A DNA stretch of 64,000 bases from an uncultured virus (IMG/VR IMGVR_UViG_3300020219_000001) (Duplodnaviria > Heunggongvirae > Uroviricota > Caudoviricetes): the IMG/VR virus record IMGVR_UViG_3300020219_000001; one strand, 5' to 3'. The stretch's first letter is position 1; each line of letters opens with the position of its first letter. Below the pieces are notes generated by a model. The model did no database searches, was not told where the DNA came from, and was given only the letters and a program-made list of their open reading frames with translations. Positions 9,523-46,575 of this stretch are shown here, piece by piece. The position numbers and the translations under genes were made by a program.

Positions 9523-9849
9523 ATGAAAACCGTTCAGTTCATTCCGGTTAATCTGGTTAAGCAGGCCGCCTGGGACCTCCATGTGCATGGAGTGTCCCCG
9601 GTCCTGTTCTCTCGTCGGGAAACTCTGTACCCCACGATCCAGAAAGACCGCCGCCGCAAAGTGCGGAAAGAAGTGTTCCCGCTGGCACTCAGCAGGATCG
9701 GCGATCTTTATTCTCCCAGGAAAAGTCAATGGCGCGTAGAGAGTTTCTTCAGCTTGCGAAGCCTTATCGACCAGGTAAGGACAAGATCGCTGGCTGGTAC
9801 GTTAGCGAGAAGCTGGACGGCACTCGTTGTTTTTGGGACGGCGGCCTAA
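9523..9849 (+). CDS. Hypothetical basic protein overlapping the ligase start
   Basis: Promoter and strong RBS upstream; 121-nt overlap with the ligase gene. Confidence 0.45.
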   Translation: MKTVQFIPVNLVKQAAWDLHVHGVSPVLFSRRETLYPTIQKDRRRKVRKEVFPLALSRIGDLYSPRKSQWRVESFFSLRSLIDQVRTRSLAGTLARSWTALVVFGTAA

Positions 9850-10826
9850 GCCGCGGACTCCCGACCGAGGGAGTACCGTGGGCGTCTGTAACTGATCCGA
9901 AGACTGGCAAGCGAAAAGGAAAGATCAAGCCGACTGCGACAGGACTGTGGAGCCGATACGGTAATCCGATCATGGCTCCGGACAGCTTCCTTGACCTTCT
10001 GCCAGCCGCTCCTCTGGACGGCGAACTCTGGGCGGGTCGAGGTAACTTCCAGCTTTGCCGCTCGATCTGCGGCGGCGACTCGCCTGACCCGCGGTTCTCC
10101 CTCATCAGTTTCGCTGTGTACGGCTTCCCGCCGATCGACACGGTGATCCAGACGGGCGAGATCAAGAACGCCAACTTCCACTGTCTCTTCGACGAGGAGA
10201 GCATCCAGAAGTTTGTGGCCTTCTGTGCCGAGAACGTAAGCCCCAACTTCCAGACCTTGGATGCTGGTGCGACCTTCGACCATGAGTTGATGGCTGGTGC
10301 CCAACTCCTGTCCGGTGACCGAGTGTTCGTACATAAGCAGGTTCGCCTGCCCGACGACGAAGCCGCGGCCGTCGCCCAGATCGAAGTCGAGTTGGGCAAG
10401 GTGCTCGAACTCGGCGGCGAAGGGGTGATGCTACGCTCTCCTGGTGCGGCCTGGACTCCCAAGCGTGTCAGCACACTGCTGAAGTACAAGCCATTCAACG
10501 ACGACGAAGGCGTGCTGGTGGGCTTCACCACTGGGCGCGAGACCGACAAGGGCAGCCGACTCCGCGGGAAGATCGGCGCTCTGATCCTGGACTACAAGGG
10601 CAAGCGCCTGGAGTTGTCCGGGCTGACGGACGAGGAGCGTGAGTTCTGTTGCTACAACGACACGACCTACGCACACGAACATCCCGGTGAAGAGATGCCG
10701 CGAGACGTGCGAGCATCTCGCAAGTTCAAGCTTGGCCAGAAGATCACGTTCATCTTCCGTGAACTGACCGACGATGGCATCCCCAAAGAAGCCCGCTACC
10801 TGCGGCAGCGAGAGGACGAAGAGTAA
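9729..10826 (+). CDS. ATP-dependent DNA ligase
   Basis: SEKLDG motif I, LDGELW, EGVML, LLKYK and a C-terminal OB fold. Confidence 0.93.
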   Translation: MARREFLQLAKPYRPGKDKIAGWYVSEKLDGTRCFWDGGLSRGLPTEGVPWASVTDPKTGKRKGKIKPTATGLWSRYGNPIMAPDSFLDLLPAAPLDGELWAGRGNFQLCRSICGGDSPDPRFSLISFAVYGFPPIDTVIQTGEIKNANFHCLFDEESIQKFVAFCAENVSPNFQTLDAGATFDHELMAGAQLLSGDRVFVHKQVRLPDDEAAAVAQIEVELGKVLELGGEGVMLRSPGAAWTPKRVSTLLKYKPFNDDEGVLVGFTTGRETDKGSRLRGKIGALILDYKGKRLELSGLTDEEREFCCYNDTTYAHEHPGEEMPRDVRASRKFKLGQKITFIFRELTDDGIPKEARYLRQREDEE

Positions 10827-11122
10827 TGAGCAAGTTCTCTGTGGCTGCCTTCCACGCCATCAAACGGAAGCCCTTCGTCGAGTTGCCGAAGACCACGCTC
10901 TATACAGCGAAAGGGCCGGCTGTCGGAACCATCTGGCTCGACGTAACGCAAAAGTCTCGTGAAACGCTGACTGTCATCGACGCTGACAGACTAATGGTCC
11001 ATTACGACAACGATAGTTGTGATGACCTGCAAGACTTCCACGAACAAGTGTCCGACGGACGTTTAGTCCTCGTCGGTGTTCGACAACCAGTATTGACGTA
11101 TACCCCGAAGGTGTTCTCTTGA
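10826..11122 (+). CDS. Hypothetical protein
   Basis: Coupled to both neighbours. Confidence 0.55.
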   Translation: MSKFSVAAFHAIKRKPFVELPKTTLYTAKGPAVGTIWLDVTQKSRETLTVIDADRLMVHYDNDSCDDLQDFHEQVSDGRLVLVGVRQPVLTYTPKVFS

Positions 11123-12219
11123 GTACGACCATTGTTGAAGTCTTGAAGATCGACGCTGTCGATCCCCATCCGAATGCCGATCGCTTAGAGATCGCGACGA
11201 TCCGCGGCGCGAAGACCGTGGTGACCAAGGATAAGTACACGGCAGGCGACTACGTCGTGTTCTTCCCGCCGGACATCCTGATTCCGGAGAGCCTCGGCCG
11301 CGAGCTAGGCGTTAGCAACTACCTGAAGCACGCTGAGTTCCCTGGGGACATCGTGAAGACGCCTTGCCGAGTGGCGGCCGCTCGCGTCCGCGGGCAAGCC
11401 TCCTTCGGCTTCGTGGTCCCGGTGGACGAAGTGTTCTTCGGCGAAGACGCTCAGATGGTCGTGGCGAACGCCGACGTGACGGCGTACTTCAACGCCCACA
11501 AGTACGTGCCGCCGGTCCAGGTCAGCGAGGGTGCCCGCCGCAAGGAGCATCCCGGCTTTCCGCGATACACCGACATCGACAACTACTACCGCTACCCGGA
11601 TGCGATCCCTGAAGGAACGCCGGTCCGGATCACCGAGAAGATTCACGGCCGCAACTGCCGTGTCGGGCTTCTCCGAGGTGAGAGCGGTGACTGGGAGTTC
11701 TTCGCAGGGTCGCACAACTTCCCTCGCAAGCGCCCAGCGGAAGATGCAAAGCCTTGCATCTACTGGGAGCCGCTCGAAGAGAAGACCGTGCTCGACTTGC
11801 TGACCGGCCTGTGCAACGAAGAGAACAGCGTCGTCTTGTACGGCGAACTGTACGGCCAAGGCTGTCAGGACCTCGACTATGGCGTGCGGCAAGGCCAACG
11901 TGAGTTCCGAGTCTTCGACATCCTGTTCAATGGCCGCTTCATGGACTGGGATGTTGTCCGAGACGTGTGCAAGTTGCACGGCGTCGAGACGGCTCCGCTG
12001 TTGTACGAGGGTCCGTTCTCGATCGCGAAGATGTCCGAACTGACGGATGGCCCCACGACGATCGGCACGCCCCGGGCGAAGTTCAAAGGTCGCGAGGGCG
12101 TCGTGGTGACGCCCCTGACGGAGTCGTACTCCGACATCCTTGGCGGCCGCATGATCCTAAAGTCGGTCTCGGCCGACTACCTCGACCGCAAGGGCGCTGA
12201 GGACAACGGAGAAATCTAA
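11119..12219 (+). CDS. RNA ligase, Rnl2-like DRB0094 family
   Basis: N-terminal HPNADRLE OB-type module; TEKIHG, YGE, FDI, REGVV and ILKS nucleotidyltransferase motifs. Confidence 0.92.
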   Translation: MSTTIVEVLKIDAVDPHPNADRLEIATIRGAKTVVTKDKYTAGDYVVFFPPDILIPESLGRELGVSNYLKHAEFPGDIVKTPCRVAAARVRGQASFGFVVPVDEVFFGEDAQMVVANADVTAYFNAHKYVPPVQVSEGARRKEHPGFPRYTDIDNYYRYPDAIPEGTPVRITEKIHGRNCRVGLLRGESGDWEFFAGSHNFPRKRPAEDAKPCIYWEPLEEKTVLDLLTGLCNEENSVVLYGELYGQGCQDLDYGVRQGQREFRVFDILFNGRFMDWDVVRDVCKLHGVETAPLLYEGPFSIAKMSELTDGPTTIGTPRAKFKGREGVVVTPLTESYSDILGGRMILKSVSADYLDRKGAEDNGEI

Positions 12220-27276: not shown

Positions 27277-27731
27277 TGCAAGCTGGAATCGCACCTGACG
27301 CGAGTCGCTCTGACGACCGCACCCTAGTGATGGAGTACAACCCGTGTAACGGCGGTTTGGAAATCTATCGTCGCACACCGTTGGACCACTACTCCTACAC
27401 GATGGAACGTATCTGTTTCGTCAAGGACAACTACCTGTCGCCGAGTTATGGAGTCTTCGCCAAGGTCAAGCAACTCGAATTCTACTCCGGCCGCACGGTT
27501 GAGCAATCGGATTACATGAAGGTCGAACGGTTTCATCTCCACGACACTCCAGTAGTGCGCAGCATCATCGAGCAGATCGACAACCTCCAATGCGGGAGGC
27601 TCTCTGACTCGTTCAACGAGACGCTCAAGGCGCTGAATGTGAACGACCAGGAACTCAAGGCGTTGGTTCCGCTGCCCAACGGCGACCTGTTCTTCTTGCC
27701 CGTCAAGCAGCTTCGCGTGGAGCCACGCTAG
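27276..27731 (+). CDS. Hypothetical protein
   Basis: Coupled on both sides. Confidence 0.55.
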   Translation: MQAGIAPDASRSDDRTLVMEYNPCNGGLEIYRRTPLDHYSYTMERICFVKDNYLSPSYGVFAKVKQLEFYSGRTVEQSDYMKVERFHLHDTPVVRSIIEQIDNLQCGRLSDSFNETLKALNVNDQELKALVPLPNGDLFFLPVKQLRVEPR

Positions 27732-28375
27732 TGAAAGTAGTAGCCATCTCCGATCTCCACGGCTACCTGCCGAAGATCGAACCGTGTGACCTCCTGCTAA
27801 TCGCCGGAGACATCTGCCCGTACCAGAATCATAACCTTCTGTTCCAGAAGATGTGGCTGAACACGACGTTCCGCGACTGGCTCGGCACGGTGCCTGCGAA
27901 GTACGTGGTGGCCATCCCGGGCAACCACGATCTGATCTTCGAGCAGAAGCCACACGAGGTTCCGACACTGCCCTGGTTCTGCTTGATCGACAACTGGGTC
28001 GAGGTGGATGGCGTCACGATCTACGGCATCCCTTGGCAGCGCCGCTTCTTCGACTGGGCCTTCAACCTGGACGAACCGGAACTCGACAAGAAGTACGAAG
28101 CCATCCCTGACTGCGACATCATCGTCTCCCACGGTCCGCCGTTTGGGTACGGTGACCAGGCACCTCGCGGCCGTGGCTTCGAGAACGTCGGCTCGAAGGT
28201 GTTCCTGCGGAAGATCGAAGAGATCAAGCCGTGGCTAGTGGTGTTCGGCCACATCCACGAAGGCGTTGGTGAGTGGATCATCAACGACGACAAGACCTTG
28301 CTCGCGAACGTCACGCACGTGAACGGCAAGTATGAACCGGTTCATCGCCCGCGGATGTGGGGAATGGGAGTTTAG
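27731..28375 (+). CDS. Metallophosphoesterase (MPPED/239FB-like)
   Basis: SDLHG, AGDI, GNHD, SHGPP and FGHIHE. Confidence 0.9.
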   Translation: MKVVAISDLHGYLPKIEPCDLLLIAGDICPYQNHNLLFQKMWLNTTFRDWLGTVPAKYVVAIPGNHDLIFEQKPHEVPTLPWFCLIDNWVEVDGVTIYGIPWQRRFFDWAFNLDEPELDKKYEAIPDCDIIVSHGPPFGYGDQAPRGRGFENVGSKVFLRKIEEIKPWLVVFGHIHEGVGEWIINDDKTLLANVTHVNGKYEPVHRPRMWGMGV

Positions 28376-33501: not shown

Positions 33502-34001
33502 ATGAAGAAGTATCTACTGTTTTGCGGCGCTAACTTCTACGCGAGTGGTGGTTGGCGAGATTTCCAGAACAGCTTCGACAGTCTCGAAGATGCGATGATG
33601 GCCGAGAAGTTCTGGTACGCTTCCCACGACAAGGCTAAGGAGGAGCCGATTGCTTCCGACTGGTGGCACATCGTGAACGGTGAGACCGGTGAGATCGTCT
33701 ATCGCCACAAAGGGAGCTACAGCGGCTAATGGAAGTCCTCGAAATTCTCGACAAAGCCGGCCCGTGGCGTCTCACACGAGTCCGCTTCCAAGGAAGTGAC
33801 AGAGAAAGCTTTGCCGCACTGGTGGAGGTTGAGGGGAAGCTCGTCTTCCCTGACTGTGGCTGGGGATGCGAGAACTGCGAGGTCTGCCTAGGCTGCGCCC
33901 GCAAGCTCACCTTCAGCATCCATGATGAGCCGCTGAAGTTCAACCTTGATCCTTACGCCCTCTGTCACAACTTCGAGCACCACGTTCCCAAAGAGAGCTA
34001 G
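33502..34001 (+). other. Two small hypothetical ORFs (33502-33729, 33729-34001)
   Basis: GGAG RBS; TAATG coupling. Confidence 0.5.
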
Positions 34002-35005
34002 GCGGCGTCCTCGTCCGTCGCCTTCCGCAACGCCTCCCGAAGATGGTCCCCTCGCTTGTGGACCTTCGAGTAGACCTTCTCCAACATCCTGAGGTCCTTG
34101 TGACCCATGAGCTTCGCCAGCGTGATGAGGTCCACGCCCCGCATGATCGCCTCTGTGGCGAACACGTGACGGATGGTGTAGGGACAGACGTGGAAGCCCA
34201 GCTTCGGACGCAGGCGGAAGCACCGCGAGTTGAGCGGTCCGCGGGTCCAGGGGTTGCCGTTCGTGTCCCGGAAGATCGGTCCCTTGGGCCACTTCAGCGC
34301 CAAGCGTTGCGTGATCTCGAACGCCTTCTTGTTCAGGTGGACGACTCGTTCCTCCTTCTCCCCTTTGGCCTCTGCCCAGGGAATGACCCAGCACCTCTCC
34401 TTGCGATCGAAGTGCCGCGCCTCGACCCAGCGGGCCTCCTGCGGCCGGCACCCGGTCTCCCTGAGGATCGTGATGATGTCCAGGAACTCCTTGTCCTTGA
34501 TGGCACCCACGAGCTTCTTGAACTGCTCCGGCGTCAGGTAGACATCTCGCGCGACCTTGGCCGGTCGCTCCAGCCCGGCAAGCGGGGTCTTGTCCAGCCG
34601 GCCGGACTTGACCGCCCAGTTCATCACCCGCTGGACGCACCGCATGGCCCCGTGAACCGTGTTCGGGTTCTTGGCCTTCAGCCCTTTGATGACCCAACGC
34701 TCCACGTGGTAGGGCTTGAGCGCCTTGATCTGAAGGTTCCCGATGTACTGATCGAAGGACTTCAGGTAGAAGCGGTACCACTCGTAGGTCGAGTCCTTGT
34801 GCTTCGCCTTCGAGTAGTCCAGGAACTCGGCGAGAAGCTCGACGACCGTCAAACCTTTTTCCTTCTTAGGCTTCGCGCCGGCCATCAGGGCGTAGAACTT
34901 CTCCCACGCTTTGTCGCGATCGGGGTCGAGCCGGACCTGCTTGCCGGCGACCGTCGTGTACCAGCAGGAATGGGTCTTCTTGTAGAACGGCTTCGGTTGG
35001 CGCAT
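33998..35005 (-). CDS. int: Tyrosine recombinase / phage integrase
   Basis: Catalytic residues in TGCRPQE (R), K, YTIRH, LMGH and VY; N-terminal arm-binding-like RQPKPFY..CWY; GGAGG RBS. Confidence 0.95.
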   Translation of the reverse strand: MRQPKPFYKKTHSCWYTTVAGKQVRLDPDRDKAWEKFYALMAGAKPKKEKGLTVVELLAEFLDYSKAKHKDSTYEWYRFYLKSFDQYIGNLQIKALKPYHVERWVIKGLKAKNPNTVHGAMRCVQRVMNWAVKSGRLDKTPLAGLERPAKVARDVYLTPEQFKKLVGAIKDKEFLDIITILRETGCRPQEARWVEARHFDRKERCWVIPWAEAKGEKEERVVHLNKKAFEITQRLALKWPKGPIFRDTNGNPWTRGPLNSRCFRLRPKLGFHVCPYTIRHVFATEAIMRGVDLITLAKLMGHKDLRMLEKVYSKVHKRGDHLREALRKATDEDAA

Positions 35006-35051
35006 AGGGTCCTCCAAGGAAACGTAGAACATTTCCCTAGACCCGCATCCA

Positions 35052-35315
35052 TACCGGGACAGAATACCGGGACGAGCCGGGACAACGATCAACGATGTCG
35101 CCGTAAGTCCTTACTGCGTAAGAGCGGGAGACGAGGATCGAACTCGCGACATCCAGCTTGGGAACCAAACGCTCTACCATTGAGCTACACCCGCGGATCA
35201 GCGTTTTTCCCCGTGTTTTCTAGGGTTCCAGCATTTTAGACTAACACGGCGGCGGGTGTCAAATTCATTCGGTTTCACTCCGTTTCACGGGGCTTACCGG
35301 GACAATACCGGGACA
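35052..35315. mobile_element. Putative attP site with arm-type direct repeats
   Basis: (TA)CCGGGAC(A) at 35052, 35065 and 35077, and at 35295 and 35306, flanking a tRNA-Gly core next to int. Confidence 0.8.
35123..35194 (-). tRNA. Chimeric / pseudo tRNA-Gly(CCC), attP core
   Basis: Full 72-nt layout with loop TTCCCAA, but the anticodon stem TTTGG/GCTGG pairs poorly and the acceptor stem has a T:T mismatch. Confidence 0.8.
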
Positions 35316-36561: not shown

Positions 36562-36620
36562 GCGAGCCGAATGCTGAGGGTTACCGGCTAACAATACCCC
36601 TTAGCAACTCACTTGCTCGC
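36562..36620 (+). ncRNA. Y-RNA-like unit 1
   Basis: GCGAGC/GCTCGC end stem; CGAA opposite ACTCACTT; 9-bp TGCTGAGGG/CCCTTAGCA; then TTACC; upstream of Ro60. Confidence 0.8.
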
Positions 36621-36625
36621 ACTTT

Positions 36626-36752
36626 GCACAGTGTAGCTCAACGGATAGAGCACCAGTAATTACGGGTCTCCAATCAACTCGCCCGCTCGCGGGCCGGCTG
36701 AAGACCCTTATCAGGGAACTGGTGGTAGCGGGTTCGACTCCCGCCACTGTGC
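36626..36752 (+). ncRNA. tRNA-scaffolded, strand-swapped Y-RNA unit 2
   Basis: Acceptor GCACAGTG/CACTGTGC, canonical D and T arms, stem CCAGT/ACTGG enclosing a 60-nt loop with GC-CGGC-N9-TTATC. Confidence 0.8.
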
Positions 36753-36756
36753 CTGG

Positions 36757-36822
36757 GGAACGGGTCGTAGTCTGTGGTTTATCTTTTGGTGATTTCCGCC
36801 ACGGACAATTTTTATCTGTTCC
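36757..36822 (+). ncRNA. Y-RNA-like unit 3
   Basis: GGAACGGGT/ATCTGTTCC, CGTA, GTCTGTGG/CCACGGAC and TTATC. Confidence 0.7.
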
Positions 36823-36828
36823 GCTTGA

Positions 36829-36962
36829 AGACGCTGTAGCTCAGTTGGTAGAGCACCTTAACTGGTCATCAACCTTTCGCCTACTCCAAATGGAGCGGGC
36901 CGAATGGTGATCGTTTTCTCCTTTTAAGAGGGTGGTCGCAGGTTCAAATCCTGCCAGCGTCT
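36829..36962 (+). ncRNA. tRNA-Lys(UUU)-scaffolded, strand-swapped Y-RNA unit 4
   Basis: AGACGCTG/CAGCGTCT acceptor; tRNA-Lys-like D and T arms; retained CTTTTAA loop; 60-nt insert with GC-CGAA-N9-TTTTC. Confidence 0.8.
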
Positions 36963-36964
36963 CT

Positions 36965-37051
36965 GCCGAGAGTCGAAGAACGAGGATTACCGCAATCGCA
37001 AGGCCGCTTGAAACGGCCTCAAAACGTCCTCGCTCACAACTTATTCTCGGC
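36965..37051 (+). ncRNA. Y-RNA-like unit 5
   Basis: GCCGAGAGT/ATTCTCGGC, CGAA, CGAGGA/TCCTCG, TTACC and ACAACTT. Confidence 0.75.
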
Positions 37052-37072
37052 CTCTTTCACCTGGAGTCTTTC

Positions 37073-38650
37073 ATGTCTGTCTCGCAGTACGCACGTAACA
37101 TGTCCGCTCGCAGTGTCCCGCAAACGGAAGCGTTGCCGGGAATGGTCAAGAACAATGGTGGCGGCTACAGCTACGGCGTAGACTGCTGGACTCGCTTGGA
37201 TCGCTTCTTGATCCTCGGTTGCGAGGGCGGTACGTACTACGCATCGGAGCGCAAGCTCACGATCGAGAGCGCTGCTTGCGTACTCGAATGTGCGAAGGCG
37301 GACATGAAACGGACCGTTGCTCGCATCGTCGAGATCAGCGAGAGCGGCCGTGCTCCGAAGAACGATCCGGCGATCTTCGCCCTAGCGTTGTTGAGTGCCC
37401 AGACGAATTCGGCTGAAGCGTTGGCGGCCGTCAATCAGGTCTGTCGCATCGGCACGTACTTCTTTCAATACATCGAAGCGGTCACGCAGTTCCGCGGCTG
37501 GGGCCGCGGCCTCCGGCGTGCGGTCGCCAACTGGTACCTGTCGAAGGACGCCGACGCCTTGGCGTACCAGGTCACGAAGTACCGGCAGCGGGGAGGTCGG
37601 TCGCACCGCGACAACCTCCGGCAATCACACCCGTTCCCGAAGACGGCCGGTCACAAGGACGTGTTCCAATGGATGGCCCAGCCGGAGAAGTGGAAGGCGT
37701 CCAAGCGGGCCGGCACGCGACTCCTGGTCACGTTTGAGGAAGCTCAGACCGCCACGACCAAGCAACTGGTGAAGATGATCGTTGAAGAGGGTCTCGTCTG
37801 GGAGCACATCCCGACCGAGAAGCTCAACGAGGTGGCCATCTGGGAAGCGCTGCTCCAGAACATGCCGTTGACGGCGATGATCCGGAACCTCGGCAAGATG
37901 TCCTCCATCGGGATGTTCAAGCCGCTGTCCAATGCCGAGAACCTGGTTGTCCAAGCACTCGGTGACCAGGGGCGGCTGAAGAAGGCCCGCATTCATCCGT
38001 TCAACGCCCTGGTCGCATCGACCACCTACAACGGTGGCCAAGGGATCAAGGGCAGCCTCAAGTGGGATGTGAACCGAAACATCTCGGCCGCATTGGAAGA
38101 GGCGTTCTACAAGGCGTTCGACTACGTCGAGCCATCCGGGGCACGAGTCGTCTACGGTGTGGACTGCTCGGCGTCGATGACCTGGCACGAGATCAACGGC
38201 ACTCGCATCACGCCGCGAATCGCGGCCGCCTGTCTCGCGATGGTCGGCCTCCGCTGCGAACCGCGGACCTTCGTCCACGGCTTCTGTGGCGACTTCGTGG
38301 ACCTCGGCATGACGAAGACCGATCGCTTGGACGCCGTCGTCCAGAAGATCAACAACACCCGGGCCGGCAGCACCAACGTCGCCGTCCCGGTCGAGTACGC
38401 ACTGAAGCATGGGATCGAGGCGGATGCCTTCGTCGTCTTGACGGACAACGAGACGAACAGCGGTAAGGAGCACCTCACTTCCTGCCTCGAACGCTACCGC
38501 AAGAAGACCGGCATCAAGGCTCGACTTGTGGTAGTAGGCATGGAGGTCAACGACTTCAGCAGCGCCGATCCGAAGGACCCGTTGCAGATGGACATCTGCG
38601 GGTTCGACTCGGCGGCCCCTTCGATCATCGGGGACTTCATCCGCCAATAG
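37073..38650 (+). CDS. rsr: Ro60 (TROVE + vWA) RNA-binding protein
   Basis: NNGGGY, RLDRFLILG.EGGTYY, GWGRGLRRAV..WY, KYRQR.G.SHRD, MPLTAMIRNL, RIHP, vWA DCSASM, TDNET and GFD. Confidence 0.96.
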   Translation: MSVSQYARNMSARSVPQTEALPGMVKNNGGGYSYGVDCWTRLDRFLILGCEGGTYYASERKLTIESAACVLECAKADMKRTVARIVEISESGRAPKNDPAIFALALLSAQTNSAEALAAVNQVCRIGTYFFQYIEAVTQFRGWGRGLRRAVANWYLSKDADALAYQVTKYRQRGGRSHRDNLRQSHPFPKTAGHKDVFQWMAQPEKWKASKRAGTRLLVTFEEAQTATTKQLVKMIVEEGLVWEHIPTEKLNEVAIWEALLQNMPLTAMIRNLGKMSSIGMFKPLSNAENLVVQALGDQGRLKKARIHPFNALVASTTYNGGQGIKGSLKWDVNRNISAALEEAFYKAFDYVEPSGARVVYGVDCSASMTWHEINGTRITPRIAAACLAMVGLRCEPRTFVHGFCGDFVDLGMTKTDRLDAVVQKINNTRAGSTNVAVPVEYALKHGIEADAFVVLTDNETNSGKEHLTSCLERYRKKTGIKARLVVVGMEVNDFSSADPKDPLQMDICGFDSAAPSIIGDFIRQ

Positions 38651-38701
38651 CGGGTGCTCAAACTGTCGGCCGGTAGACACATTCATCAAGGGAACAACGA
38701 C

Positions 38702-39709
38702 GTGACATTGATTCGTGAAGTGACAGTCCGAGTGAAGGGTAAGACTCCTCTTACCATTCACAACAATCAACCTGCCGCAGAGTTTCAGTCGGCGATTAAC
38801 CAACTGATGGATCGGCGGACGCCCCTCGTCGGCGAGGCGAGAGACATGCTGCGATGGCTACGCTATCAGGCTGTGTGCTTTCACATCAGGGACGGGCGTC
38901 CCTACATGAGTAGGAATGCCTTGCTCCTACCGTTCATTCATGCCACGGACAGGACAGAAGAGAAAGACTTCCTGAAGAGCATTCTCTCGGTGGCAGAGGC
39001 AGTCCCAATCCAGCACGACGGTCCTTCGACGGTCAAAGAACTGTTCCGAAGCGAGTTCCATAAGCAGGTTGTCTACTCACCGGAATTGGGCGAAATCACC
39101 ATCCCTGTGGTGTACGACTGGGGTTTCACGTTTGTGTTACAGTTCGAGTGCGGGCGTATTAAAACTCCCGATCCGAAGCTGACCGAAGAGGACTTCATCC
39201 GCGGCATGTTGTACGCCGGATCGAAGACCAAAAGCTTCGGCGGCATCCGCCATTCGAGCTTTGGCCAATTCGACATCACCTCCATCGTGTTTGGGCCGCC
39301 AATCGAGAAGCGGACCCCTGCGGCCGCTCGCAAATCATTCGGGTTAATCCTGGATACATCGGAAGTAGCCACTGCCCCGAGCGAGGTGGTTCCAGAGCCG
39401 CCGGTTCAGCCAACAGTGATCGACTTGGTTGAGGCTCCTCTCAGCAAGGTCATGCCGATGATCCAGAAGGACCCACGGCTCGAACCCGACGTACAGAAGC
39501 GATTGTTGGATGCCCTGAACGAGTTGACCGCCATCTCGGTGCTGGGAGACCACAAGCTGATTCGACGCGCTGTGTGCGAAACCCTGAACAAGCACGGCAT
39601 CAAGAGTTTCAAGTTCCAGGATTGGAAGGCACACAACCTCGACTGCTTGATGCGGAACCGAAGAAACAAGAAGATCAGGGACGCCGAAAAAGCCAAGGGG
39701 GTTGCATGA
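38702..39709 (+). CDS. Divergent solo RAMP/Cas7-like protein with C-terminal extension
   Basis: V.VKG.TPL.IHN, DGRPY, DGP...ELF, P...DW.F.F.L and a C-terminal G-rich loop AG...FGGIR..FGQF.I; pattern recognition only. Confidence 0.55.
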   Translation: MTLIREVTVRVKGKTPLTIHNNQPAAEFQSAINQLMDRRTPLVGEARDMLRWLRYQAVCFHIRDGRPYMSRNALLLPFIHATDRTEEKDFLKSILSVAEAVPIQHDGPSTVKELFRSEFHKQVVYSPELGEITIPVVYDWGFTFVLQFECGRIKTPDPKLTEEDFIRGMLYAGSKTKSFGGIRHSSFGQFDITSIVFGPPIEKRTPAAARKSFGLILDTSEVATAPSEVVPEPPVQPTVIDLVEAPLSKVMPMIQKDPRLEPDVQKRLLDALNELTAISVLGDHKLIRRAVCETLNKHGIKSFKFQDWKAHNLDCLMRNRRNKKIRDAEKAKGVA

Positions 39710-40018: not shown

Positions 40019-41296
40019 GTGAGACGCTTCTTCTTGTCAATGCTGCGGTGGTTGCTCGGCCGGTTCACGCTGGCCGAGCAACCCGTAGTTGACCTCAGGC
40101 ATCTCTACTGCGAGGTCTGCCCGGCACGTCGCCGAGGCTGGTTCCGTTACTTCTGTTCGCTGTGCGGCTGTTCGATCAGCACACGACGATGGCCCTTCAA
40201 CAAACTGGCGATGAAACATGAGTTCTGTCCAGACGGTAAGTGGTTCGCCCTTGACGATGGAAAAGGCGGTGGCGGGAGTGCGGGGGTTGCAGAAGCACGC
40301 CCAGGACCTAATCAACCAGCGGGCTGACCACAAGAAGTGGAAGCGGCTCCGCGGCCTTTACAACGGCAACCTGGAGCACGGCTTCGACGCCGAACGGGAG
40401 CCGAAGAAAGCGAGTGGTAAGCATGAACGATCCCGATAAGTTCCGCTCGGACGCACAGTGGGCATTGGTCGCCAAGATTCTTCTTGGTTGCATCGCGGCC
40501 TACGTGCTGTACCAAGTCGGCATGACTCTCTGGGTGATCCTCCTGCTGCGATCGTTTCACTGATGTACCAAATCTACGACATCCGCGCTCGGTACTCCGA
40601 GGACGCGACAGAGAAGGAGCTTGAGGGTCTAGGTGGAAGGTGGATCGAGGGTCTACCGCCTGGCCGCATCTGGAGTGGGGATAGCTGGACGAAGATGCCG
40701 CGAGAGCAAACCACTCTGGAAGAGATGGAAGCTCTCGTCCCGGCGATGTGGGAGGAATACCAACCACACCTGATGAAGAAGCGAGGTGAACGGAATCGCT
40801 CGGAGCCTGAGTTCACCGTCAAGTTCATCCGCGAGGAGACCTGGTGCCAAGGCTGGTTCAGCCATTGGACCTGGGACACCGGACAGAGTGACAACGAGGT
40901 GCTGAATTCATTCGAGGACTTCGTCCTGCGGATGGAAGTCCTCAACCGGCGAGAAGGTCACTACGATCCGAACATGGGCCTTTGGATGGACAAGTACGTC
41001 CTCATGGGCGCTGAGGATCGCTGGCGATGGAAGGGTAGGGACGGGTCGGACCCGCCGTGCCGATGTGCAGGATGCAAGGAGCAAGGAATCATCAAGATCG
41101 ACCATTAGGAGTCTGCATGTTCGCCGAACTGTTCTTCCTGCATAAGCCCGACGCTCGCTCGGCCTTATACGAGTACCCGAAGCGTCCGCGTATGCGGGCC
41201 TTCACACGTTGCATTGTGAACATTGCTCTCGCCAGCTTGCTGGTGTTCAGCGTGTTCGGTTCCCTTTTCTGCTCTTTCAATGTGGTGTTCAACTGA
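40019..41296 (+). other. Cluster of hypothetical ORFs (Cys-rich 40019-40327; about 40563-41108; 41117-41296)
   Basis: Same-strand ORFs; exact starts are uncertain. Confidence 0.45.
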
Positions 41297-45365: not shown

Positions 45366-46000
45366 AGTTGGCCGGTGAAAAGCCGATCGTGGGCGAGACC
45401 TACATGGTGCCGTGCTTTGCCGGTACCCCCGTCGTAGGTGAGACCCACACGGACAACAGCCACTTCGTCCACGGTAAGGAGCACTACCACTGTGACTCAC
45501 GCTTCGTTGAAAGCGAGACGCAAGACCAGTGTGGTGTGATGCTACACCTGAACCCAGACGCGAAGCTCACTATGGAGCCTCGCGTCTGCATTCGAGACAC
45601 GCCCGTTCGCCCTGACAACCCAGCAGCCTGGCTCGCAAAGGCGGCCTTGTACCTGGACTACGGGCACTGCCGAGTGGTGAATGGCCGGTGCCCACACAAG
45701 GGTATGCCGATCCAGAACGGCGTGTGCTCCGGACACCGGATGAGGTTTGTGGGCGATCGACCGAAGCACAAGGGGCCGATCACGCTACGCATTCGCGGTA
45801 CCAAGAACGAGATCGTAGTCACGCAAACGTCCGAGATGGACGAGATGCCGATTCCGATCACTGAACGCTTTGTCGGCAACGTCATGCTGGAATTCATCGA
45901 CAACAAGGGAGAGCTAATCTCCGAGCGTCCGTTCGGCTACTGGACTCTGGAGCCGGGCGAAACTCTTACCATCAGACCTGAAGAGAGGAACAGCTATTGA
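45362..46000 (+). CDS. His/Cys-rich hypothetical protein
   Basis: H.D...HYHCD.RF, CPH.G and CSGH motifs. Confidence 0.55.
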   Translation: MKLAGEKPIVGETYMVPCFAGTPVVGETHTDNSHFVHGKEHYHCDSRFVESETQDQCGVMLHLNPDAKLTMEPRVCIRDTPVRPDNPAAWLAKAALYLDYGHCRVVNGRCPHKGMPIQNGVCSGHRMRFVGDRPKHKGPITLRIRGTKNEIVVTQTSEMDEMPIPITERFVGNVMLEFIDNKGELISERPFGYWTLEPGETLTIRPEERNSY

Positions 46001-46575
46001 GCGGCATCGACAGCTTTGAACAGATCAACGGCCGACTCAACAACACGGTCTTGATCGCGGCCCGCTGTGCCTTCGAGGCACACGACGGCCAGCTTCGCAA
46101 ATACAGCAACCGACCGTACATCGAACACCCGATGCGTGTCGCCGGCAGAGTGAGCCTGCTGCCCGAGACCAGAGATTGGATCGTGGCCGCGGCCTGGCTC
46201 CACGACGTGCTCGAAGACACCGCGGTGACCGAGGATGACATCTTCTGCAAGTGGAAGCTACCACGGGTAACCATCGACCTGGTCAAGGAACTGACCAACC
46301 CGTCCAAGGGACTGAACCTTCCGCGAGAAGAGCGGAAGAAGATGGACCGCGAGCATCTGTACCACGCCAGCGAGTGGGCAAAGCGACTCAAGCTCATCGA
46401 CCGGATCGACAACATCCGCGACATGACGGGCGCTGAGAAGGGATGGAAGCACAAGTACGCCGAGGAGACCATGCTGCTCCTTAGTTCGTTGCTCGACATC
46501 CGTGACCGTGTGAACAAAATCCTCTACCTCGAACTCTGCCGAGAGATCGAGACCCTTATCCGGAGTGCCGCATGA
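45997..46575 (+). CDS. Stand-alone RelA/SpoT-type HD hydrolase (small alarmone hydrolase-like)
   Basis: AHDGQ.RK...PYIEHP..VA, AAWLHDVLEDT, V.ELT and KL.DR.DN. Confidence 0.88.
   Translation: MSGIDSFEQINGRLNNTVLIAARCAFEAHDGQLRKYSNRPYIEHPMRVAGRVSLLPETRDWIVAAAWLHDVLEDTAVTEDDIFCKWKLPRVTIDLVKELTNPSKGLNLPREERKKMDREHLYHASEWAKRLKLIDRIDNIRDMTGAEKGWKHKYAEETMLLLSSLLDIRDRVNKILYLELCREIETLIRSAA

Follow-up and report, generated by a model that had tools for sequence, protein, structure and literature searches.

The locus described here raises the question of what is encoded by the 490 nucleotides (nt) that precede a Ro60 (rsr) gene in the DNA of an uncultured virus (IMG/VR record IMGVR_UViG_3300020219_000001). 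The function of the Ro60 ring depends on its adaptors, the Y RNAs. In the 64,000-nt stretch that was analyzed, hereafter the window, we found five closely packed structured RNA units, U1 to U5, at 36562-37051 (+), ahead of Ro60/rsr at 37073-38650. With a probability of about 0.78, we read the 490 nt upstream of this phage-borne rsr as encoding five predicted Ro60 partner RNAs of two kinds. Judging by their sequence, U1, U3, and U5 would be hairpin Y RNAs comparable to YrlB, and U2 and U4 would be tRNA-shaped Y RNAs carrying a Ro module at the site of the anticodon arm. The units and the gene are listed below, with scores against two covariance models (R1 for the tRNA-ordered class, R2 for the hairpin class) that are described further on.

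36562..36620, + strand: U1, predicted hairpin Y RNA (R2 55.7 bits, in the seed; fold z -4.65; strict parse passed)
36627..36753, + strand: U2, predicted tRNA-ordered Y RNA (R1 99.2 bits, in the seed; called by ARAGORN -i as a tRNA with an insert)
36757..36822, + strand: U3, predicted hairpin Y RNA with a variant motif (R2 35.1 bits, in the seed; fold z -4.38)
36830..36963, + strand: U4, predicted tRNA-ordered Y RNA (R1 99.0 bits, in the seed; Rfam tRNA 50.4 bits)
36965..37051, + strand: U5, predicted hairpin Y RNA with a larger loop domain (R2 30.0 bits, in the seed; fold z -3.71; strict parse passed)
37073..38650, + strand: Ro60/Rsr gene, 525 amino acids (Pfam TROVE 8.3e-47, vWA_Ro60 1.2e-49; PHROG 850 RNA-binding protein 1.5e-65)

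The TROVE and vWA_Ro60 matches bear out the identity given to this gene in a preliminary description of the same DNA. The five units share the (+) strand with rsr and lie 21-510 nt ahead of its ATG, within the distance used to recognize bacterial and phage Y RNAs (up to about 4 kb, same strand). U5 ends 21 nt before the ATG at 37073, and a GGAG ribosome-binding site lies about 10 nt past U5 and 8 nt ahead of the ATG. From U1 to U5, the units are separated by about 6, 3, 7, and 1-2 nt (boundaries set by sequence reading); the tight tiling noticed earlier, with gaps given there as 2-6 nt, is real.

The units have in common the signature G-Y-CG-N11-TTWYC. A scan for GYCG-N11-TTWYC returned exactly the five identically spaced sites reported at the outset, at 36566, 36693, 36764, 36899, and 36972, all (+), out of seven matches on both strands of the window. 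By chance, 4.99 matches are expected in the whole window, which comes to about 0.02 per 490 nt of a single strand; the clustering of five sites far exceeds this. As previously proposed, each N9 has a partner strand of its own, together with a closing lower stem: 9, 8, 9, 9, and 8 of the nine positions are paired in U1 to U5 (G-U counted), and the helix sequence is different in each unit. The partner strand is downstream of N9 in U1, U3, and U5, and upstream of it in U2 and U4. The pyrimidine-rich strand described opposite the CG is also present, 7-9 nt long and G-free in all five units: ACTCACTT in U1, ATCAACT in U2, AATTTTTAT in U3, ACCTTTC in U4, and ACAACTTAT in U5. The common module thus consists of a lower stem, an internal loop of CGNN facing the pyrimidine-rich strand, a helix of about 9 bp, and UUAYC.

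This module resembles the one published for bacterial Ro60-binding RNAs. Bacterial YrlA and YrlB are defined by 5' GNCGAAN0-1G and then YUAY (Chen 2014, PMC4201824). The first element is exact in U1, U4, and U5 (3/5), and YUAY is present in U1, U2, U3, and U5 (4/5).

In U1, U3, and U5, the RNA ends make the lower stem, which gives a hairpin topology. In U1, the lower stem GCGAGC/GCTCGC leads to CGAA, facing ACTCACTT, to the 9-bp helix TGCTGAGGG/CCCTTAGCA, and then to UUACC and a loop. The motif of U3 is GUCGUA-GUCUGUGG-UUUAUC. In U5 it is GUCGAA-GAACGAGGA-UUACC, and the loop domain holds a GGCCG...CGGCC hairpin.

U2 and U4 are built the other way round: a loop caps the lower stem, and the far side of the module leads into a tRNA body, which has an open 7-bp acceptor stem and canonical D and T arms. 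Both lack the anticodon arm (5-bp stem, 7-nt loop) and have in its place 53-73 nt with the Ro module. U2 has the acceptor CACAGUG/CACUGUG, D and T arms, and a retained CCAGU/ACUGG stem; its module reads GCCCG-CUCG-CGGGC (lower stem with a CUCG loop), CGGC, UGAAGACCC, and UUAUC. In U4 the acceptor is GACGCUG/CAGCGUC, both arms are canonical, and the module reads GGGC-CGAA-UGGUGAUCG-UUUUC, its lower stem being closed by a CUCC-AAAU-GGAG hairpin. Pairing in the acceptor, D, Ro, lower, and T helices is 7/7, 4/4, 7/8, 5/5, and 5/5 in U2, and 7/7, 4/4, 8/8, 4/5, and 5/5 in U4. With default settings ARAGORN reports neither unit, and it calls both once introns are allowed (-i), U2 with a 53-nt insert at position 31/32 and U4 with a 62-nt insert. 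Rfam tRNA (RF00005) matches U4 at 50.4 bits (gathering score 29) with a 73-nt insertion, and U2 is not reported at gathering level. The tRNA parts suspected in these two units are supported by ARAGORN with introns in both and by the Rfam model in U4.

Each unit folds better than 200/200 shuffled versions of itself (z -3.7 to -5.0). When the whole 526 nt are folded together, the five separate units are kept in both the minimum free energy and the centroid structures (z -5.7).

To place the units among relatives, we used a sample of 160 rsr loci, 80 from metagenomes and 80 from genomes, around rsr relatives of the window gene. The hairpin model R2, built from 44 seeds, gave 190 matches (104 and then 86) in the 160 loci plus the window, of which 190 are on the rsr strand and none on the opposite one; 162 of them, in 128 loci, are short hairpins. 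Among the first 104 matches, 93.0% of the alignment cells are paired, against 73.8% in shuffled and 32-49% in slid controls, and double changes occur in 13/14 pairs. Within the window, R2 matches U1, U3, and U5 alone at E<=10. A strict, model-free parse found a partner and a closing stem at 223/749 motif sites on the (+) strand against 2/286 on the (-) strand. It replaced a loose Python parse that was unspecific, with a high (-) strand background.

The tRNA-ordered model R1 was built from 23 seed elements, two of them from the window. Its structure was given by hand, since MAFFT with RNAalifold missed the Ro helix owing to a one-column misregister. Defining the tRNA-ordered set as the R1 matches at E<=1e-13, we identified 50 elements, 23 of them seeds, in the window and in 27/160 rsr loci. 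An earlier census with ARAGORN and introns, which gave 54/160 loci with an upstream insert-bearing 'tRNA', was inflated and was replaced by this set. Seventeen of the loci are from genomes of Chloroflexota, Armatimonadota, Planctomycetota, and Alphaproteobacteria (by record title). Singulisphaera and Paludisphaera (L128, L121) are cultured carriers of the class. In the R1 alignment, 95.4% of the cells are paired, against 76.4% when shuffled and 38-51% with slid partners; changes on both sides are found in 26/29 pairs, and all five helices covary. The acceptor stem is 99.7% paired, the lower stem 95.2%, and the Ro helix 86.7%, with double changes in 8/8 pairs of the latter. The insert is the best-conserved part of these elements, GCCG and GUUAYC being invariant. 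In three whole genomes (6-10 Mb), the sole chimera-length R1 match adjoins rsr (3/3), and the other R1 matches are ordinary tRNAs of 73-75 nt, at no more than 62 bits. In a family-level sample, 4/31 genomes have tRNA-ordered elements, six in total, every one of which lies directly beside rsr.

Motif, fold, covariation, and a linkage exclusive to rsr are direct observations of this analysis. The covariance-model search of rsr neighborhoods suggested in the preliminary description finds both types of units there, with covariation. Together with the published motif and the position directly upstream of rsr on its strand, this supports the initial assignment of the units to the Y RNA kind.

Some features of the relatives are worth recording in their own right. 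The seventh pair of the Ro helix (columns 115/215 of alignment A5) is unpaired in 29/50 tRNA-ordered elements, and the matching position is unpaired in 42/100 hairpins; this gap looks like a conserved mismatch or bulge within the helix. In several tRNA-ordered elements, such as those of L085 (1177-1298), L040 (405-526), and L090 (2753-2875), a short hairpin with a 7-nt loop (e.g. CUCAUAA, CUUUUAA) directly follows UUAYC, at the site of the YrlA V arm, and looks like an anticodon stem-loop. In L128 (2860-2960), a loop-closed Ro module (CTCA-GTCC-TGAG, CCGAA, TGGGCACGA, TTATC) has no tRNA arms around it and looks like a permuted Y RNA that is not tRNA-shaped.

How do U2 and U4 differ from YrlA, the bacterial class of Y RNA that is known best? 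In YrlA, the T arm comes first, followed by a closed acceptor-like hairpin and the D arm, and the RNA ends form the Ro stem (Chen 2014). Indeed, all characterized Y RNAs have the Ro site in the stem made by their 5' and 3' ends (10.1101/312249), and YrlA resembles a circularly permuted tRNA, for which a dimeric tRNA origin was suggested (10.1101/312249). Like the YrlA of S. Typhimurium and M. smegmatis (RF02553), U2 and U4 lie beside rsr on the same strand, carry a strand of the GNCGAA...YUAY kind, and have D and T arms able to form a tRNA elbow, with the Ro helix at the place of the anticodon stem. They have the D arm, T arm, and acceptor-like stem set on the Ro stem at the anticodon position, and they lack the permuted topology: the 7-bp acceptor is open, the Ro stem is closed, and the order is D arm, module, T arm, whereas YrlA has its ends in the Ro stem, a closed acceptor-like hairpin, and the order T arm, acceptor-like stem, D arm. 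Since the Ro module is at the anticodon site and the ends make a normal acceptor stem, the three-dimensional layout of U2 and U4 should, in this model, match that of YrlA, with the gene order of a tRNA. What the earlier term 'tRNA-Y chimera' missed is the wiring, a putative YrlA in unpermuted tRNA order with open acceptor ends.

We consider this topological variant, as read from the sequence, to be the new part of the locus. Within the reach of a full-text literature search, no Y RNA that combines the gene order of a tRNA with open acceptor ends was found described, although a review outside that reach may bear on it. A 127-nt 'putative YrlA' of Singulisphaera acidiphila (CP003364.1, 3175727-3175853), listed in Table S1 of Chen 2014 with no topology given, may be such a tRNA-ordered element. 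A Ro60-bound RNA in two pieces, made from a nicked permuted precursor, is like U2 and U4 in having free acceptor ends and a 7-bp acceptor stem recognized by tRNA-maturing enzymes; U2 and U4 differ in being predicted as a single continuous chain with a closed Ro stem.

The rest of the system is known. Ro60 genes with adjacent Y RNAs, in phages as well, are an established arrangement, and arrays are common. In M. smegmatis, YrlA and YrlB come from one precursor upstream of rsr (Chen 2014). The Ro60 of Thermus phage phiLo binds two upstream CGAA hairpins and assembles with the host PNPase (PMC12135203). By description, U1, U3, and U5 are like YrlB, D. radiodurans Yrn2, and phiLo Yrl1 and Yrl2, which are hairpins upstream of rsr with a CGAA bulged stem made from the RNA ends (PMC4201824; PMC12135203). 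The accounts of these RNAs describe two per locus, whereas the window has three hairpins interleaved with tRNA-shaped units; in phiLo, Ro60 binding and PNPase recruitment are demonstrated (PMC12135203). The D. radiodurans precursor Yrn2-tRNAAsp-Yrn1 also alternates Y RNAs with a tRNA-shaped element, on a single transcript in which tRNA processing sets the Y RNA ends (Chen 2014). Its middle element is an ordinary decoding tRNA, whereas the tRNA-shaped elements of the window have Ro modules and no anticodon loop. The 'swappable adaptors' of the preliminary description are the standard modular model of Y RNAs and add no new inference to it.

The novelty initially claimed for a five-member alternating layout was also overstated. 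With h, t, and L as the letters given for array members, L068 has the array h-t-L-t-h-t with gaps of 2-8 nt, and other tight mixed arrays are h-h-t-h in L008, h-t-h in L079 and L080, and t-h-t in L139. The closest Ro60 proteins are 56-63% identical to that of the window, and the relatives align over residues 2-525; identity to actinophage Ro-like proteins is about 40%, and a scan of viral contigs with the window protein found no relative. In the two closest loci (L001 and L002, 57% identity), the order sigma factor gene, array, rsr is kept. The array is Y, tRNA-Y, Y, Y in L001 and tRNA-Y, Y, Y in L002, with helix sequences unlike those of the window. A blastn search of the array against phages gave as sole match 36 nt of the U4 T arm, in cyanophage tRNA-Arg genes, which is uninformative. 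In Verrucomicrobiota-type loci (L127, L092, L049, L024, L116), rsr and its Y RNAs are embedded in dense runs of ordinary tRNA genes on the same strand, up to about 20 of them within 7.6 kb.

The sigma factor gene in question ends 12 nt ahead of U1, and its homologue (29% identity) is at the same place in L001 and L002:

35503..36549, + strand: sigma-70 family (ECF-like) factor gene (Pfam Sigma70_r2 5.8e-13, r4_2 1.7e-7; PHROG sigma factor 2.9e-24)

For transcription, processing, Ro60 binding, and the choice of effectors, we infer the following scheme. The sigma gene, the array, and rsr would be transcribed as one unit. No promoter-like or terminator-like site was detected on the (+) strand between the sigma gene and rsr; given this absence and the synteny conserved with L001 and L002, the sigma gene is probably co-transcribed with the array. 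RNase P would cut the 5' end of each tRNA-shaped unit, and RNase Z, or exonucleases, together with the CCA-adding enzyme, would finish the 3' ends. The same cuts would set free the hairpins on either side, as in tRNA punctuation. Each RNA would then dock on Ro60 through the common module, leaving the variable end (loop domain or tRNA body) to recruit or gate other factors, e.g. host PNPase or tRNA-binding enzymes.

Several observations weigh against our reading of the array as five Ro60 partner RNAs. The motif departs from the published one in U2 (GCCGGCUG) and U3 (GUCGUAG), and U4 has UUUUC at the position of YUAY. As the window units are in the seeds of both R1 and R2, their own scores are partly set by construction, and the alignments in which pairs were counted are fitted to the models. 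RNAfold alone fails to give the comparative Ro helix within U4. The comparison with Rfam that had been suggested turned out unfavorable: RF00019 (Y_RNA) has no match in the window at E<=10, and YrlA (RF02553) scores 31.6 bits, under its gathering score of 69, in a match at 36695-36885 that links the U2 T arm with the U4 D arm over an 88-nt insertion. A weaker pairing in the canonical style can also be drawn on paper across units, with the 3' half of U2 set against the 5' half of U4 (about 5/7 in the acceptor-like stem, 7/8 in the helix). Finally, no promoter was identified, and the case for co-transcription consists of absent signals and synteny.

Part of the Rfam result has a structural explanation, as the unpermuted tRNA order of U2 and U4 accounts for a weak match that straddles units. 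At gathering level, Rfam YrlA gives no match either in 19 loci that carry tRNA-ordered elements or in 19 that carry canonical-order ones, and hence cannot separate the two wirings. Rfam tRNA is passed by 19/34 tRNA-ordered elements in 19 loci, and YrlA by none. A canonical YrlA spanning the 3' half of U2, U3, and the 5' half of U4 was considered and rejected, as pairing within the units is better (7/7 acceptors) and the array fold keeps five units. The opposite error was also met: low-scoring R1 matches of Verrucomicrobiota type (45-66 bits, acceptor 4-6/7, Ro about 4/8) were discarded as tandem canonical YrlAs misread across their junctions, the converse of what Rfam YrlA does in the window. 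Under strict criteria, which undercount both wirings, 15 loci have elements of canonical order and 27 have tRNA-ordered ones. Since a single locus has both, the two wirings look like alternatives.

Similar cross-matching affects the hairpins. Nematode stem-bulge RNAs (RF01656), which are homologues of vertebrate Y RNAs (PMC4726728), are like the units in their stem-bulge-stem form with ...CG.. and UUAUC. They differ in being eukaryotic genes of RNA polymerase III, and the likeness is limited to a short conserved stem. U3 matches RF01656 weakly, at 24.6 bits, below the gathering score of 38. This score is passed by 11 bacterial hairpin Y RNAs in 38 loci (38.7-42.8 bits), namely L090 2405-2474 and 1570-1641, L091 2108-2171, L139 330-398, and hairpins upstream of rsr in L036, L108, L116, L049, L065, L021, and L016. 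Automated annotation would label such genes misleadingly.

Beyond the reading of the array as five Ro60 partners, we entertain a bolder idea, which we regard as possible and rather doubtful: that tRNA-ordered Y RNAs are true tRNA-derived adaptors. Their maturation would take RNase P, RNase Z, and the CCA-adding enzyme; they would present a free acceptor on Ro60, may be ancestral to YrlA, and would double as punctuation in arrays.

Among the explanations that compete with ours, the one that fares best, though we hold it to be unlikely, is that the array serves above all as a leader of the rsr mRNA that acts in cis, by which Ro60 would bind its own transcript and feed back on its translation or stability, with stable trans-acting RNAs not being the main product. 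The closeness of U5 to the ribosome-binding site and start codon described above suits such a leader, as does the lack of a terminator-like or promoter-like site between array and gene, and at many loci a hairpin Y RNA lies about 130-140 nt upstream of rsr, at nearly fixed spacing. However, 11 loci have elements or arrays downstream of rsr, outside any leader. The full 7-bp acceptors, the D and T arms, and the CCA encoded in 9/50 tRNA-ordered elements (N-CCA; not in U2 or U4) point to excised RNAs, and the upstream Y RNAs of the species studied by Chen 2014 are processed from a precursor and accumulate bound to Rsr.

A second explanation would keep the hairpins as the functional products and make the tRNA-shaped units chiefly handles for RNase P and RNase Z, and stabilizers, which release hairpin Y RNAs rather than acting as Ro60 adaptors with an effector of their own. 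We find it distinctly improbable. Punctuation would fit the 1-7 nt spacing of the units in the window, the hairpin that lies no more than 15 nt away on at least one side of 19/50 tRNA-ordered elements, and the tRNA-containing Y RNA precursor of D. radiodurans (Chen 2014). Yet the tRNA-shaped units carry a covarying Ro module with invariant GCCG and GUUAYC, which punctuation alone does not need, and at many loci they occur alone or in tandem without hairpins (L018, L040, L085, L093).

That U2 and U4 are decoding tRNA genes, or pseudogenes, broken by an intron or an unrelated insertion is very hard to sustain: ARAGORN -i does call them, as a tRNA-Pro(AGG) and a suppressor with a UUA anticodon, and U4 passes the Rfam tRNA gathering score, but the inserts are at positions 30-32 instead of the canonical 37/38, are 53-62 nt long without group I features, are the most conserved part of the elements, and covary as a Ro module, while the supposed anticodons vary among relatives and such elements adjoin only rsr in the three genomes searched.

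The surroundings of the array are phage-like. Of the 65 open reading frames (ORFs) of the window, 30 have PHROG matches at E<=1e-5, including DNA polymerase, helicase, exonuclease, ribonucleotide reductase, thymidylate synthase, DNA and RNA ligases, integrase, and two sigma factors. Jumbo phages of Caulobacter and Brevundimonas have AAA+ ATPases that share about 30% identity with one in the window. No structural genes were found in the 64-kb window, and a tblastn search with its DNA polymerase ORF against deposited phages gave no match. By its content, the window looks to be a piece of a large phage or of another mobile element; the phage context first proposed holds as to character, and the phage label itself is likely and not proven. 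The same DNA occurs in microbial-mat metagenome runs.

Several neighboring features were noted:

35122..35194, - strand: tRNA gene (Rfam tRNA 51.5 bits) with a four-base anticodon (ccca) and an 8-nt anticodon loop according to ARAGORN
33998..35092, - strand: integrase gene, which the tRNA gene abuts
9729..10826, + strand: ATP-dependent DNA ligase
11119..12219, + strand: RNA ligase (PHROG 968, 5.7e-46)
27731..28375, + strand: metallophosphoesterase
45997..46575, + strand: HD phosphohydrolase
38654..39709, + strand: ORF of 351 amino acids, which starts 4 nt past the rsr stop
40019..40327, + strand: ORF of 102 amino acids

The tRNA at 35122-35194 could be that of an att site or a phage tRNA resembling frameshift suppressors. 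The two ligases, the metallophosphoesterase, and the HD phosphohydrolase may form an RNA-repair toolkit alongside Ro60. The ORF that follows rsr is missing from L001 and L002, and no family is assigned to it by Pfam, PHROG, or the Atlas, which gives only unnamed viral clusters below 0.9. The ORF of 102 amino acids is kept in both loci, with 57-62% identity.

The locus and its relatives reveal a second wiring of putative Y RNAs, with ordinary tRNA ends, in four bacterial phyla and in this phage-like element. Standard annotation will file the genes of these RNAs as odd or intron-bearing tRNAs. For phage biology, the window offers a predicted five-RNA Ro60 module beside RNA ligase and nucleotide-metabolism genes. 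The tRNA-ordered wiring also provides a directly testable route to the origin of YrlA, and it predicts that tRNA-maturing enzymes shape Ro60 ribonucleoproteins. Should tRNA-ordered Y RNAs prove to be true tRNA-derived adaptors, the free acceptor end of a Ro60-docked RNA could be open to aminoacylation, EF-Tu, and tRNA-repair enzymes, and the units in arrays would double as punctuation that frees hairpin Y RNAs. If they are also ancestral to YrlA, tandem arrays would have given rise to its permuted form when the 3' half of a unit became fused to the 5' half of the unit that follows, and this would bear out the 'dimeric tRNA' origin proposed in 10.1101/312249.

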